DNA of 64,000 nucleotides from the NCBI RefSeq assembly GCF_058153355.1, contig NZ_CM177019.1; one strand, given 5' to 3'. Below, piece by piece: positions 15,347-54,718 of the stretch. Below the pieces are notes generated by a model. The model searched no databases. It saw nothing but the letters and a program-made list of their open reading frames with translations, and had not been told where the DNA came from. Position 1 is the first letter of the stretch, and each line of letters begins with the position of its first letter. The position numbers were made by a program, and so were the translations under genes.

Positions 15347-15458
15347 CCCCGGCTAGACCGGGGTGCGCGAATACTGCGCCAACACCAGGGAAATCTTGGC
15401 TGCGCCGTAAATTATTATGATGAGTTACAAGGGCACAGCACTGTTTTTCAGGCCGCAC
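15338..15458 (-). ncRNA. arcZ: ArcZ small RNA (Hfq-dependent), antisense to the arcB 3' end
   Basis: The reverse complement of ~15338-15458 matches the ArcZ sequence as I recall it (GTGCGGCCTGAAAAACAGTGCTGTGCCCTTGTAACTCATCATAATAATTTACGGCGCAGCCAAGATTTCCCTGGTGTTGGCGCAGTATTCGCGCACCCCGGTCTAGCCGGGGTCATTTTTT), with terminator hairpin CCCCGG/CCGGGG and T-run overlapping the arcB stop. Confidence 0.75.
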
Positions 15459-36927: not shown

Positions 36928-37009
36928 AATCTCGCGCTAACAACCTGGAATCGAGCCGTCATACTACGGCGCAACGCCCTATAAAGTAAACGATGACCCT
37001 TCGGGAACT

Positions 37010-37080
37010 TCAGGGTAAAATGACTATCAAAATGTGAATTGTAGCTGACCTGGGACTTGTACCCGGGTCGGTATTTTTTT
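37010..37080 (+). ncRNA. graL: greA leader region with intrinsic attenuator (GraL-type leader RNA)
   Basis: Hairpin GACCTGGG…CCCGGGTC followed by TATTTTTTT about 100 nt upstream of the greA start; a leader-derived sRNA is described for greA. Exact ends not determinable from sequence. Confidence 0.4.
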
Positions 37081-43730: not shown

Positions 43731-43817
43731 TGCCGAGGTGGTGGAATTGGTAGACACGCTACCTTGAGGTGGTAGTGCCCAATAGGGCTTACGGGTTCAA
43801 GTCCCGTCCTCGGTACC
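43731..43817 (+). tRNA. leuU: tRNA-Leu (anticodon GAG)
   Basis: GCCGAGGTGGTGGAATTGGTAGACACGCTACCTTGAGGTGGTAGTGCCCAATAGGGCTTACGGGTTCAAGTCCCGTCCTCGGTACCA; cloverleaf with long variable arm, anticodon loop UUGAGGU, encoded CCA end. Confidence 0.9.
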
Positions 43818-47598: not shown

Positions 47599-47675
<77 letters not shown>

Positions 47676-47797
47676 CTTTCCCTTAGAGTCCTTTTTCAAA
47701 TATACTGTGAAGACTTCGGCCTTCGTAGTGGGATTTGAAAAAATCCTTCTGGAAAGTGCTCCAGACCGCAGTTGCGGTTATAGGGTTCAGTTATATA

Positions 47798-47822
47798 AAG
47801 CCCCGATTTATCGGGGTTTTTT
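47798..47822 (+). terminator. Intrinsic terminator/attenuator between metY and rimP
   Basis: AAAGCCCCGA-TTTA-TCGGGG followed by TTTTTT. Confidence 0.65.
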
Positions 47823-47881
47823 GTTATCTGACTACAGAATAACTGGGCTTTAGGCCCTTTTTTTATGTCTTGGGGGTGGGC

Positions 47882-49873: not shown

Positions 49874-52546
49874 ATGACAGATGTAACGATTAAAACGCTG
49901 GCCGCAGAGCGACAGACCTCCGTGGAACGCCTGGTACAGCAATTTGCTGATGCAGGTATCCGGAAGTCTGCTGACGACTCTGTGTCCGCACAAGAGAAAC
50001 AGACTTTAATTGACCACCTGAATCAGAAAAATTCAGGCCCGGACAAATTAACGCTGCAACGTAAAACCCGCAGCACCCTTAACATTCCTGGTACCGGTGG
50101 AAAAAGCAAATCGGTACAAATCGAAGTCCGCAAGAAACGCACCTTTGTGAAACGCGATCCGCAAGAGGCTGAACGCCTTGCTGCGGAAGAGCAGGCGCAG
50201 CGTGAAGCGGAAGAGCAAGCCCGTCGTGAGGCAGAAGAATCGGCCAAACGCGAGGCGCAACAAAAAGCTGAACGTGAGGCCGCAGAACAAGCTAAGCGTG
50301 AAGCCGCTGAACAAGCGAAACGTGAAGCTGCGGAAAAAGACAAAGTGAGCAATCAACAAGACGATATGACTAAAAACGCCCAGGCTGAAAAAGCCCGCCG
50401 TGAGCAGGAAGCTGCAGAGCTCAAGCGTAAAGCTGAAGAAGAAGCGCGTCGTAAACTCGAAGAAGAAGCACGTCGCGTTGCTGAAGAAGCACGTCGTATG
50501 GCGGAAGAAAACAAATGGACTGATAACGCGGAACCGACTGAAGATTCCAGCGATTATCACGTTACTACTTCTCAACATGCTCGCCAGGCAGAAGACGAAA
50601 GCGATCGTGAAGTCGAAGGCGGCCGTGGCCGTGGTCGTAACGCGAAAGCAGCGCGTCCGAAGAAAGGCAACAAACACTCTGAATCAAAAGCTGATCGTGA
50701 AGAAGCACGCGCAGCAGTACGTGGCGGTAAAGGCGGGAAACGTAAAGGTTCTTCGCTGCAGCAAGGCTTCCAGAAGCCAGCTCAGGCCGTTAACCGTGAC
50801 GTTGTGATTGGCGAAACCATCACCGTTGGCGAACTGGCGAACAAGATGGCGGTTAAAGGTTCTCAGGTCATCAAAGCGATGATGAAACTGGGCGCAATGG
50901 CAACCATCAACCAGGTTATCGATCAGGAAACCGCACAGCTGGTTGCTGAAGAGATGGGCCACAAAGTTATCCTGCGTCGTGAAAACGAGCTGGAAGAAGC
51001 GGTAATGAGCGACCGTGACACGGGTGCTGCGGCTGAACCGCGCGCGCCGGTTGTGACCATCATGGGTCACGTTGACCACGGTAAAACCTCTTTGCTGGAC
51101 TACATTCGTTCAACGAAAGTGGCCTCTGGCGAAGCGGGCGGCATTACCCAGCACATTGGTGCATACCACGTTGAAACTGAAAACGGCATGATCACCTTCC
51201 TGGACACCCCGGGGCACGCCGCGTTTACTTCAATGCGTGCACGTGGTGCGCAGGCAACGGACATCGTAGTCCTGGTTGTTGCTGCCGACGACGGCGTAAT
51301 GCCGCAGACCATCGAAGCAATTCAGCACGCGAAAGCGGCAGGCGTGCCGGTTGTGGTTGCAGTGAACAAGATCGACAAACCAGAAGCCGATCCAGATCGC
51401 GTTAAGAACGAACTCTCTCAGTACGGCATCCTGCCGGAAGAGTGGGGCGGTGAAAGCCAGTTCGTACACGTGTCTGCGAAAGCAGGTACCGGTATCGATG
51501 AACTGCTGGACGCTATCCTGTTGCAGGCAGAAGTTCTGGAACTGAAAGCGGTACGTAAAGGTATGGCGAGCGGTGCGGTTATCGAATCCTTCCTCGATAA
51601 AGGTCGTGGTCCGGTTGCTACTGTTCTGGTACGTGAAGGTACTCTGCACAAGGGCGACATCGTTCTGTGTGGTTTCGAATACGGTCGTGTTCGCGCAATG
51701 CGTAACGAAATGGGTCAGGAAGTGCTGGAAGCAGGTCCGTCCATTCCAGTTGAAATCCTTGGCTTGTCCGGTGTTCCGGCAGCGGGTGACGAAGTTACCG
51801 TAGTGCGTGACGAGAAGAAAGCACGTGAAGTTGCACTGTATCGTCAGGGCAAATTCCGTGAAGTTAAACTGGCACGTCAGCAGAAATCGAAACTCGAGAA
51901 CATGTTCGCCAACATGACCGAAGGCGAAGTTCACGAAGTGAACATCGTTCTGAAGGCAGACGTTCAGGGTTCCGTGGAAGCGATCTCCGACTCCTTGCTG
52001 AAACTGTCTACTGACGAAGTTAAAGTGAAGATCATCGGTTCTGGCGTAGGTGGTATCACCGAAACCGACGCTACCCTGGCTGCGGCGTCCAACGCCATCC
52101 TGGTTGGCTTCAACGTACGTGCTGATGCCTCTGCACGTAAAGTGATTGAAGCGGAAAGCCTGGATCTGCGTTACTACTCCGTCATCTATAACCTGATCGA
52201 CGAAGTGAAAGCGGCGATGAGCGGTATGCTGTCTCCGGAACTGAAACAGCAGATTATCGGTCTGGCGGAAGTTCGTGATGTGTTCAAATCACCGAAATTT
52301 GGTGCCATCGCAGGTTGTATGGTTACTGAAGGTGTGGTTAAACGTCACAACCCGATCCGCGTTCTGCGCGACAACGTGGTTATCTACGAAGGCGAGCTGG
52401 AGTCCCTGCGCCGCTTCAAAGATGACGTTAACGAAGTCCGTAACGGTATGGAATGTGGTATCGGCGTTAAGAACTACAACGACGTCCGCACTGGCGATGT
52501 GATCGAAGTATTCGAAATCATCGAGATCCAACGTACCATCGCTTAA
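49874..52546 (+). CDS. infB: Translation initiation factor IF-2
   Basis: 890-aa ORF; repetitive charged N-terminal region, GTPase domain ([18 protein letters not shown]). Confidence 0.95.
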
Positions 52547-52562
52547 GGTTTTTAGGGTTCTA

Positions 52563-52636
52563 TGCGGGATAAGGCGTTTACGCTGCATCCGGCATGGATT
52601 GCCTGATGCGACGCTGGCGCGTCTTATCAGGCCTAC
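52563..52636. repeat. Pair of inverted REP elements (BIME-like) between infB and rbfA
   Basis: TGCGGGATAAGGCGTTTACGCTGCATCCGGCA and GCCTGATGCGACGCTGGCGCGTCTTATCAGGCCTAC read directly. Confidence 0.75.
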
Positions 52637-52668
52637 GTGAACAGCCCTTCCACCTGAAATTAATTTTA

Positions 52669-52693
52669 AAAAGGGGCTAACAGCCCCTTTTTT
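52669..52693 (+). terminator. Hairpin with T-run just upstream of rbfA
   Basis: AAAAAGGGGCT-AAC-AGCCCC followed by TTTTTT. Confidence 0.6.
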
Positions 52694-52709
52694 GTCAGGA
52701 GAATTTATT

Positions 52710-53111
52710 ATGGCGAAAGAATTTGGTCGCCCGCAGCGCGTAGCGCAGGAAATGCAAAAAGAGATCGCTCTCATCCTGCAACGCGAAATTAAAGATCCTC
52801 GTCTGGGCATGATGACCACCGTTTCCGGTGTCGAAATGTCTCGTGACCTGGCGTATGCAAAAGTATATGTGACGTTCCTTAACGACAAAGATGAAGACGC
52901 GGTTAAAGCGGGTATCAAAGCATTACAAGAAGCCTCTGGTTTCATCCGCAGCCTGTTGGGGAAAGCGATGCGACTGCGCATCGTGCCGGAACTGACCTTC
53001 TTCTACGACAACTCACTGGTTGAAGGGATGCGTATGTCAAACCTGGTGACCAGCGTGGTCAAACATGACGAAGAACGTCGTGTTAACCCGGACGACAGCA
53101 AGGAGGACTAA
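52710..53111 (+). CDS. rbfA: Ribosome-binding factor A
   Basis: ORF 52692..53111; conserved start [20 protein letters not shown] at ATG 52710; 133 aa. Confidence 0.9.
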
Positions 53112-54107: not shown

Positions 54108-54473
<366 letters not shown>

Positions 54474-54490
54474 TTCTTGCGAGTTTCAGA

Positions 54491-54516
54491 AAAGGGGCCT
54501 GAGTGGCCCCTTTTTT
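54491..54516 (+). terminator. rpsO rho-independent terminator
   Basis: AAAAGGGGCC-TGAGT-GGCCCC followed by TTTTTT. Confidence 0.85.
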
Positions 54517-54519
54517 CAA

Positions 54520-54718
54520 ACTGACGGCAGCAATTCACTGGAAACTAATGTATTGTTGCTATGAATGATCTTCCGTTGCAGAGGTTCGCGCGGCTAATGA
54601 GAGGCTTTACCCACATTGGGCTGGGTTAGGGTTGTCATTAGTCGCGAGGATGCGCAGAAGATCGGGTATTAACACCAGTGCCGTAAGGTGCTGTCTAAGA
54701 AAGAGAAAGGATATTACA
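54520..54718 (+). promoter_or_regulatory. pnp promoter/leader with long stem-loop (autoregulatory RNase III-processed leader in E. coli)
   Basis: ~200-nt untranslated region ending at a UUG start; extended pairing potential across 54590-54680; function assigned from what is known of pnp regulation. Confidence 0.55.

Follow-up and report, generated by a model that had tools for sequence, protein, structure and literature searches.

A conserved terminator hairpin and a lineage-specific REP pair in the infB-rbfA spacer of the Escherichia coli nusA-infB operon

Elements of the infB-rbfA spacer

The window is the whole stretch of 64,000 nucleotides that was analyzed, and the segment described here is a part of the E. 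coli chromosome in which metY, rimP, nusA, infB, rbfA, truB, rpsO, and pnp follow one another on the + strand, based on the ORF list and on RefSeq relatives. A 451-nt query around the spacer between infB and rbfA was matched over at least 80% of its length in 5422 of 5426 complete E. coli genomes, where the matched positions carry infB and rbfA annotations. The spacer spans positions 52547-52709 and is 163 nt long, which is also its length in K-12. Over the 211 bases that were compared (52520-52730), the window strain differs from K-12 by 5 substitutions, none of which is within the terminator. The whole spacer has a minimum free energy (MFE) of −69.3 kcal/mol (z −6.1), and 0 of 200 shuffled sequences are equally good. 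The spacer and its borders feature the following elements, together with the evidence used to place them:

49874..52546, + strand: infB ORF (ORF list; annotated infB in RefSeq relatives)
52544..52546, + strand: infB stop codon TAA (ORF list, RefSeq relatives)
52554..52558, + strand: 5' arm AGGGU of a 5-bp outer helix that encloses the REP pair in the spacer MFE structure, with its partner GCCCU at 52644-52648
52559..52598, + strand: REP-1, y-type, GTAG-end first, with the y REP proper at 52559-94 (fold, y pattern, y consensus, Rfam alignment, alleles)
52595..52599, + strand: linker TGGAT, ~5 nt (folds, alleles, Rfam alignment)
52600..52636, + strand: REP-2, z2-type, in inverse orientation (REP consensus, z2 consensus, fold, copy number)
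52637..52667, + strand: right flank GUGAACAGCCCUUCCACCUGAAAUUAAUUUU, which includes GCCCU (52644-48), CCUGA (52653-57), and an A/U-rich stretch (single copy in 5424 of 5426 genomes)
52668..52693, + strand: intrinsic terminator t3, hairpin AAAAAGGGGCU-AAC-AGCCCCUUUUU(U) (repeat search, fold, terminator scan, northern literature)
52697..52712, + strand: rbfA Shine-Dalgarno sequence AGGAG (52697-52701) and start codon ATG (52710-12) (direct reading, ORFs, comparison)

A BIME consists of two inversely oriented REPs with a short linker (PMC8266576). The infB-rbfA spacer features this arrangement, in that a y REP and an inverted z2 REP are separated by a short linker. Both REPs are imperfect palindromes of 20-50 nt that form a stem-loop with an AA-GC bulge, and both are multicopy and extragenic. 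REP-2 is a 38-nt repeat; for the REP part of the query the median is 10-12 matches per E. coli genome, and the flanks occur once. REP-1 folds with −21.8 kcal/mol (z −4.6), its core matches the y-type pattern with 0 mismatches (0.00 such matches are expected in shuffles), and its local score against the y consensus is 28/35. The GTAG position of REP-1 (52560-63) is mutated and reads CTAT in the window and CCAT in K-12. The lower stem of REP-1 is lengthened (UCUAUGC/GCAUGGA) and takes up the first four bases of the TGGAT linker; the hairpin also features a G-G mismatch, a UUUA loop, and an AA/GC bulge in which AA at 52571-72 faces GC at 52585-86. REP-2 folds with −21.4 kcal/mol (z −5.2), matches the degenerate REP consensus with 0 mismatches (0.00 expected in shuffles), and scores 37/37 against the z2 consensus. 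The CTAC of REP-2 at 52633-36, which is GTAG on the − strand, is intact in the window, and its bulge, formed on the + strand by UU at 52624-25 and G/C at 52608-09, is AA/GC on the REP strand. Repeat types in the spacers were assigned by local alignment to consensus sequences; for the y, z1, z2, and ERIC consensus sequences, the only validation comes from the near-perfect or perfect matches and from the Rfam model.

The Rfam model naRNA4 (RF02564), the consensus of which joins a y REP to a z2 REP by a 13-nt linker, matches positions 52563-52633 on the + strand with 73.5 bits, compared to a gathering threshold of 59.5, and with an E-value of 4e-11 for the whole window. The match is full-length (model positions 1-77), its main departure is a linker that is 6 nt shorter, and it is the only REP/BIME match in the 64 kb. 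An initial annotation of this DNA had marked the interval 52563-52693, which extends from the start of the Rfam match to the last T of the T-run, and had described two inverted, BIME-like REP palindromes in it that a REP consensus search should recover. The y plus z2 composition, the naRNA4 score, and the mismatch-free matches of REP-2 and of the REP-1 core all bear this description out. BIME-2 elements are y-z2 units that are often found in tandem and are bound and cleaved by DNA gyrase. The infB-rbfA BIME has the y-z2 composition of BIME-2 and comprises one unit only. The RefSeq annotation of K-12 features no REP at infB-rbfA, and none at REP325 either, so the annotation is uninformative.

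The AGGGU arm of the outer helix is invariant across seven E. coli alleles of class 1 (see below) and is therefore uninformative. There is also no variation in the right flank among the class-1 alleles. The A/U-rich stretch of this flank (52657-52672) is a candidate RNase E site. A 230-amino acid ORF on the − strand (52289..52981) runs antisense across the spacer; it has no RefSeq annotation and was taken as mechanical.

The terminator t3 is composed of an A-run (52668-72), the stem strand GGGGCU (52673-78), the loop AAC (52679-81), the stem strand AGCCCC (52682-87), and a U-run (52688-93). In the hairpin, AAAAAGGGGCT and AGCCCCTTTTT form a perfect inverted repeat of 11 bp around the 3-nt loop AAC, and the hairpin folds with −14.8 kcal/mol as a whole and −9.5 kcal/mol for the GC core. 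A 6-bp stem with 5 GC pairs and a 3-nt loop followed by UUUUUUGU is the form of an intrinsic terminator. A standard consensus terminator scan of the window missed t3, since the T tail is taken up by the A/T extension of the stem; once A-T pairs are trimmed, t3 is found with a stem of 6, 5 GC pairs, a loop of 3, and the tail TTTTTTGT. The GC core is short at 6 bp, which is consistent with partial and not complete termination. The hairpin ends 3-4 nt before the rbfA Shine-Dalgarno sequence, which is left uncovered. The sequence UCAGGAG in front of rbfA is Escherichia-specific; all other species feature UCUGGAG or the variants UAUGG, ACUGG, and GUGGAG.

Conservation and variation of the spacer

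The rbfA loci were fetched from the genomes of 80 other Enterobacteriaceae species, and 79 infB-rbfA spacers of 62-289 nt were extracted. All 79 spacers feature a G-rich/C-rich hairpin, followed by a T-rich tract, that is located 21-30 nt upstream of the rbfA ATG. The G-run and the C-run are equal in length in 80 of 81 sequences, with arms of 4:4 (n = 63), 5:5 (n = 5), and 6:6 (n = 12), and the remaining sequence is 6:5 (n = 1). The GGGGC/GCCCC core is never flipped or turned to A-U in the 80 other Enterobacteriaceae sequences, and the loops vary freely across species. Arm lengths were compared in place of pair counts from a MAFFT alignment of the hairpins, which was dropped since it placed the 6-G hairpins out of register with the 4-G hairpins. 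E. coli and most genera carry UUUUUUGU directly after the hairpin, as is canonical for an intrinsic terminator. Fourteen spacers of 62-75 nt, from Cedecea, Buttiauxella, Atlantibacter, Shimwellia, Franconibacter, Entomohabitans, and relatives, hold essentially the hairpin alone, mostly with six G-C pairs (five in Entomohabitans) and with a poor U-tract. The U-tracts of the 6-G lineages read GUUUUGU, GAUUUGU, and UGUUAGU, which suggests that the hairpin may not terminate well in these lineages.

Upstream of the hairpin, the stretch that follows the infB stop codon is a repeat hot spot and contains nothing, one REP, a REP pair, or an ERIC. Most genera feature a single GTAGGCCGGG-type REP upstream of the hairpin. 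The y-z2 pair is found only in Escherichia and Pseudocitrobacter among the spacers compared, and a y-z1 pair is located at the same site and between the same flanks in some Citrobacter and in Kluyvera georgiana. ERIC-like elements, some of them with an extra insert, are found in Salmonella diarizonae, Raoultella, Citrobacter youngae/braakii, Phytobacter, and Intestinirhabdus. Since the hairpin is present in every spacer and the upstream content is replaceable, the terminator is the conserved core of the spacer, and the REP pair is a passenger that is specific to certain lineages.

Within E. coli, the terminator and the right flank are present in single copy in 5424 of 5426 genomes, and in 4385 they reach an identity of at least 99% with the window. 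An IS4-family element is inserted inside the hairpin in one E. coli strain, 22AH104, where the hairpin is duplicated as a 12-bp target site.

The REP pair is kept in 5422 of the 5426 E. coli genomes, and the spacer occurs in two allele classes. Class 1 comprises ~4700 genomes, including the window and K-12. Class 2 features an intact GTAGGCCGGAT y REP and a GGGGC-(U)UAU-GGCCCC hairpin that are common to E. albertii and Pseudocitrobacter, and because of this sharing class 2 is probably ancestral. In class 1, seven clustered substitutions abolish the REP-1 GTAG and yield the longer lower stem UCUAUGC/GCAUGGA, and the terminator has U-A as its sixth pair. Class-2 E. coli, E. albertii, and Pseudocitrobacter keep the REP-1 GTAG that is lost in the window, which identifies REP-1 as a decayed REP member. 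REP-2 features CAAC, not CTAC, in 7 of 7 other class-1 alleles (K-12, H10407, AVS0787, SRCC1675, O26, ECamp52, and UPEC_U013). The E. coli REP transposase TnpA(REP) was reported by Corneloup et al. to tolerate no GTAG mutation (PMC8266576), and with the GTAG lost the class-1 REP copies are therefore probably immobile.

Among seven distinct class-1 alleles, 10 SNPs are located in the 77-nt REP pair versus 0 in the other 92 columns, and this concentration is consistent with weak constraint or gene conversion. Stem positions hold 7 of the SNPs, each of which turns G-C or G-G into G-U on the sense strand, and 98.7% of cells are paired. Double-sided compensatory changes were absent among the E. coli alleles, which feature one-sided wobble changes only. 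The wobble-only pattern is consistent with the hairpins being retained in the mRNA; a C-to-T bias on the non-template strand, together with gene conversion between REPs, could also account for part of it.

These data bear on the question of whether the REP pair has a function. It is possible, but on balance doubtful, that the pair is a decayed selfish element without function that sits in a permissive gap between stop codon and terminator, a reading that is compatible with the account of t3 given below. It is favored by the content of the site, which differs by genus (nothing, one REP, y-z1, y-z2, or ERIC with or without an insert), by the loss of GTAG from REP-1 in the window and K-12 and from REP-2 in most E. 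coli, to which TnpA(REP) is intolerant (PMC8266576), by the peak of SNP density in the REPs, and by the presence of an IS in the spacer of one strain. However, 5422 of 5426 genomes still have the pair, all stem polymorphisms preserve pairing on the sense strand, the seven clustered substitutions of the derived class lengthened the REP-1 stem, and REPs elsewhere have measurable effects.

The lengthened stem also raises the possibility that REP-1 acts on translation and lowers IF2 synthesis, in that a hairpin less than 15 nt past the infB stop codon would stall terminating ribosomes and lead to tmRNA-dependent events, an effect known from other REPs. In the window and in K-12-like alleles the lengthened REP-1 stem begins 12 nt after the TAA, which would fall under the "fewer than 16 nt" rule of Liang, Rudd, and Deutscher 2015 as quoted in PMC12306157. 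The distance is borderline, however, and varies with the definition and the allele: it is 13 nt when counted to the GTAG position, 16 nt when counted to the start of the Rfam match, and 17 nt for the stem of the ancestral class-2 alleles. No data for infB were found, and this role of REP-1 is very unlikely.

Termination between infB and rbfA

The hairpin upstream of rbfA is designated terminator t3 in the map of the nusA-infB operon by Brandi et al. 2019 (PMC6511841), and t3 is attributed to Plumbridge and Springer 1983, as cited. Northern blots in the same study revealed a read-through RNA of ~6.7 kb that is detected by rimP, nusA, infB, and rbfA probes, and a rimP-nusA-infB RNA of ~4.8 kb that is undetected by the rbfA probe (PMC6511841). 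RNAs of ~4.8, ~4.3, ~3.6, and ~2.7 kb carry infB, and it is for the first two that the lack of signal with the rbfA probe is explicit (PMC6511841). This northern evidence for t3 is size-based and does not have nucleotide resolution. The amount of rbfA mRNA was about half that of infB mRNA, and cold shock resulted in no new read-through species (PMC6511841), a result that speaks against Csp antitermination in this operon as modeled by Bae et al. 2000. The initial annotation had placed a GGGGCT/AGCCCC hairpin with a T-run immediately before rbfA, inside the infB-rbfA spacer of a cotranscribed operon, and had suggested that partial termination or mRNA-stability control sets the levels of rbfA/truB relative to infB. 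The hairpin and T-run are located as described, the ~6.7 kb RNA confirms read-through across the spacer, and both the ratio of the two mRNAs and the t3 northern blots agree with partial termination. Uniform transcript coverage across the spacer, the finding that would have spoken against the suggestion, does not agree with the infB RNAs that escape the rbfA probe on these blots (PMC6511841).

Among the Term-seq 3' ends curated by Adams et al. 2021, none is listed at 3311708-3318213 on the minus strand in three conditions, and the supplements have no entry for infB, rbfA, or 3312-3313 kb. The lowest read counts in the parts of the tables that were compared are ~23,000 for the minus strand versus ~850 for the plus strand. 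Such high minimum counts for the minus strand indicate poor sensitivity, and the missing 3' end is therefore weak evidence. The TERMITe and SMRT-Cappable-seq supplements list nothing for the infB-rbfA site.

A different role for the t3 hairpin, in which it is mainly an RNA-stability element that caps the 3' end of infB RNA and the 5' end of a processed rbfA-truB RNA, is improbable. The hairpin is conserved even where the U-tract is poor, as in the 6-G lineages, it adjoins the rbfA Shine-Dalgarno sequence without covering it and has an A/U-rich stretch just upstream, and the tables of Adams et al. 2021 list no Term-seq peak for it; these observations would suit such an element. The canonical terminator form, with UUUUUUGU after the hairpin in E. 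coli and most genera, argues against it, and the literature both names the hairpin a terminator and reports infB RNAs that do not include rbfA (PMC6511841).

It has also been suggested that the BIME is responsible for attenuation at this site. The element before rbfA was listed by Naville and Gautheret 2010, together with elements upstream of gatY and cvpA, as "a possible attenuator based on BIMEs" (PMC2965389). In this explanation the BIME itself would be the main attenuator, by pausing, by Rho- or hairpin-dependent termination, or possibly by an anti-terminator switch, and t3 would be secondary. The proposal for rbfA, gatY, and cvpA includes possible anti-terminators and cites BIME-dependent attenuation of a reporter (PMC2965389), and REP325 attenuates yjdN ~8-fold in a partly bicyclomycin-sensitive manner (bioRxiv 10.64898/2026.03.23.713779). 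In the spacer, AGCCCUU at 52643-49 resembles the 3' arm of t3 and could pair with its 5' arm. However, this candidate anti-terminator (52643-52680) folds with only −8.7 kcal/mol (z −0.65), 46 of 200 shuffled sequences fold as well, and it is absent from species that do not have the BIME. The pairing of AGCCCUU with the t3 5' arm is thus unsupported, its fold being no better than that of shuffles, and no support was found in the spacer for the competing structure of an attenuator. Additionally, the hairpin and U-run are retained in taxa that have no REP or have other inserts, the 2-hairpin naRNA4 unit alone does not feature bicyclomycin sensitivity (bioRxiv 10.64898/2026.03.23.713779), and supplement 2 of Adams et al. 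2021 lists no Rho-termination region at 3311-3313 kb. A BIME that acts as the main attenuator is, on this evidence, rather unlikely.

Proposed mechanism and related systems

The account that joins these observations, and that is considered highly probable, is that t3 is a leaky Rho-independent terminator and that the y-z2 BIME is a later arrival that likely protects infB mRNA. In this mechanism part of the transcripts are released at t3 after infB, a step that is shown in the literature, and the remainder continue into rbfA-truB and on to rpsO-pnp. A leaky t3 thus results in less mRNA for rbfA and truB than for infB. One y-z2 BIME unit would have been inserted between the infB stop codon and the pre-existing t3 in the lineage leading to Escherichia, and in most E. 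coli the REP pair has lost the GTAG for mobilization and kept both hairpins. The REP pair may serve as a barrier to 3'-to-5' exonucleases that shields infB mRNA once the t3 hairpin has been removed, and it may act as the same barrier after an RNase E cut in the A/U-rich stretch (52657-52672) of the read-through RNA. The REP hairpins would in this way probably protect the 3' ends of infB RNA, by analogy with REPs at other loci. They possibly add slight pausing or attenuation. The comparison of spacers indicates that the REP pair is not needed for termination, because the hairpin is conserved in taxa that do not have any REP.

Both t3 and the BIME at rbfA are already published, and the feature noted in the window is a rediscovery. 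What is new here is the conservation of the hairpin in 79 of 79 spacers with covarying arm lengths and the insertion hot spot upstream of it. This comparative result is a clarification that leaves the current understanding unchanged; the site upstream of t3 hosts REP, ERIC, and IS insertions. The spacer is a clear case of a REP settling between a stop codon and a pre-existing terminator, and t3 explains part of the unequal expression of IF2 versus RbfA and TruB within a core operon for translation and ribosome assembly.

A variant of this account, in which t3 is a valve tuned by NusA (or Csp) rather than a fixed leak and the REP hairpins are kept by selection on the sense RNA, is unlikely. Naville and Gautheret deemed the combination of GGGC...GCCC and a U-run specific to the rimP-leader terminator, which is a proposed target of NusA autoregulation (PMC2965389). 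The 64-kb window has three such signatures, one each in the rimP leader, t3, and the rpsO/sraG terminator. If NusA does act on the t3 stem, the NusA level would set the rbfA-truB output per infB, and 30S maturation factors would be coupled to the supply of a transcription factor.

The published t3 (PMC6511841) is the same element at the same locus, and the infB-rbfA hairpin described here is functionally no different. The BIME attenuator drawn before gatY, rbfA, and cvpA (PMC2965389, Fig. 8) is likewise the same rbfA-proximal element, flagged computationally; that study credits the BIME and possible anti-terminators, whereas the present comparison credits the conserved function to the downstream hairpin. 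Within the same operon, the rimP-leader terminator (RF01770) features a similar short G-rich/C-rich hairpin, GGGCUUUAGGCCC-U7 at 47845, to which GGGGCUAACAGCCCC-U6 at 52673 is the t3 counterpart, located in an intergenic region and not in a 5' leader. The RF01770 model matches only 47764-47864 in the window and has no match in 52450-52800 at E-values up to 10, so that t3 resembles the rimP-leader terminator and is not a member of its family.

The closest relative of the REP pair is REP325/naRNA4 (RF02564; PMC4550694), which likewise consists of a y REP and an inverted z2 REP with AA/GC bulges and is located between co-directional genes of an operon. REP325 is a tandem array of six units, whereas the infB-rbfA BIME is a single unit with a linker that is 6 nt shorter than in naRNA4. 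Additionally, and unlike in the REP325/naRNA4 unit, REP-1 of the infB-rbfA spacer does not have GTAG and its lower stem is lengthened. REP325 stabilizes the upstream yjdM RNA and attenuates yjdN, and its Rho dependence is a property of the full 12-hairpin array and not of the 2-hairpin unit (bioRxiv 10.64898/2026.03.23.713779). The HU/nucleoid role of the founding naRNA4 member is disputed and was unsupported in the same 2026 preprint (bioRxiv 10.64898/2026.03.23.713779). The infB-rbfA BIME features a canonical intrinsic terminator 31 nt downstream, whereas most REPs do not have an adjacent U-tract. An intercistronic REP stabilizer between malE and malF was reportedly described by Newbury et al. 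in 1987, a study cited in PMC12306157. In stabilizers of the malE-malF type, REP hairpins are located between genes of the same operon and are expected to protect the RNA of the upstream gene against 3' exonucleases and thereby to skew expression to that gene. The infB-rbfA spacer differs from malE-malF in that a true terminator, which alone is able to explain the skew, is located downstream of the REPs.

The BIME site and its REP content

The BIME between infB and rbfA, made up of REP-1 (y type) and REP-2 (z2 type), has on its two sides the arms of an imperfect inverted repeat, GGTTnnnnGGGT ... AGCCCTTCCACC, located at 52547-52558 and 52637-52655 of the window. The same flanks are present in five compared rbfA loci (L004, L019, L022, L023 and L026), and the bracketing repeat is common to the y-z2 and y-z1 versions found in different genera, in which the second REP differs. 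The BIME site is therefore orthologous between genera, and its REP content has been swapped.

The E. coli spacer features two allele classes, as determined by comparing REP-1 at 52559-52598 with the class-2 (probably ancestral) alleles of loci L083, L084 and L003. The common derived class differs by 7 substitutions that are clustered and fall in both REP-1 arms, removing the GTAG and giving REP-1 a new 7-bp lower stem. The derived REP-1 appears to have arisen by replacement, conversion or template switching and not by independent point mutations. The exact window allele is rare: over 141 nt, 8 records reach at least 99% identity to it. The derived allele also creates a new ATG at 52562, with an AGGG ending 4 nt upstream, which opens the following reading frame.

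Small ORF through the REPs
52562-52606, 14-codon ORF MRDKAFTLHPAWIA, from the derived-allele ATG across REP-1 to a TGA stop within REP-2

In the spacer comparison this ORF was found neither in the class-2 alleles nor in other species.

In several genera the infB-rbfA spacer is occupied by ERIC/IRU-like elements with the core CACCCCGGTCACATAGTTATCTATGCTCCCGGGGATT, which score 20-30/44 against the ERIC core on the minus strand. These spacers are 212-289 nt long, lie upstream of rbfA (L007, L016, L018, L048, L051, L057, L039, L040, L021 and L013), and two of them carry an extra insert of ~70 nt. In the shorter spacers, of 139-154 nt, the sequence resembles ERIC ends that lack the core.

The t3 terminator and the rbfA Shine-Dalgarno

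The sequence UCAGGAG before rbfA (52695-52701) is confined to Escherichia; elsewhere it reads UCUGGAG or UAUGG, ACUGG, GUGGAG. The Escherichia change lengthens the Shine-Dalgarno match and, in the predicted MFE fold, completes a 5-bp helix, CCUGA (52653-52657) with UCAGG, around the t3 terminator hairpin, in which the first three Shine-Dalgarno bases are paired.

In E. coli 22AH104 (L094, 2530-2560 and 3830-3870) the t3 hairpin is interrupted by an IS4-family insertion sequence whose transposase gene is 1188 nt. The insertion point is equivalent to window 52673-52687, and the 12 bp duplicated at the target, GGGCTATGGCCC, are the t3 hairpin itself. Upstream of the element the hairpin copy has lost its U-run; downstream of it, hairpin and T6 are both retained shortly before rbfA. 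This insertion is a natural break in infB-rbfA co-transcription in a viable strain.

Other features and related terminators

Rfam matches above threshold, and an antisense ORF
15351-15458, minus strand, ArcZ
36958-37079, plus strand, greA leader
43732-43815, plus strand, tRNA
47599-47672, plus strand, tRNA metY
47764-47864, plus strand, rimP leader
54146-54260, plus strand, S15 leader
54489-54660, minus strand, SraG
52289-52981, minus strand, 230-aa ATG ORF antisense to the end of infB, the entire spacer and the beginning of rbfA

The Rfam features are all expected in this E. coli region. The antisense ORF, which RefSeq relatives leave unannotated, is in all likelihood mechanical.

The GGGC...GCCC(C)-U-run pattern has 6 matches in the 64-kb window versus 0.27 expected. 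Just three terminators in the window carry such a stem, all inside the metY-to-pnp cluster.

GGGC...GCCC(C)-U-run terminators
47845-47863, rimP leader terminator
52673-52693, t3
54490-54515, rpsO/sraG terminator

The weak Rfam matches on t3, to SraG and other sRNA terminators, are due to this same GGGC...GCCC-type resemblance.
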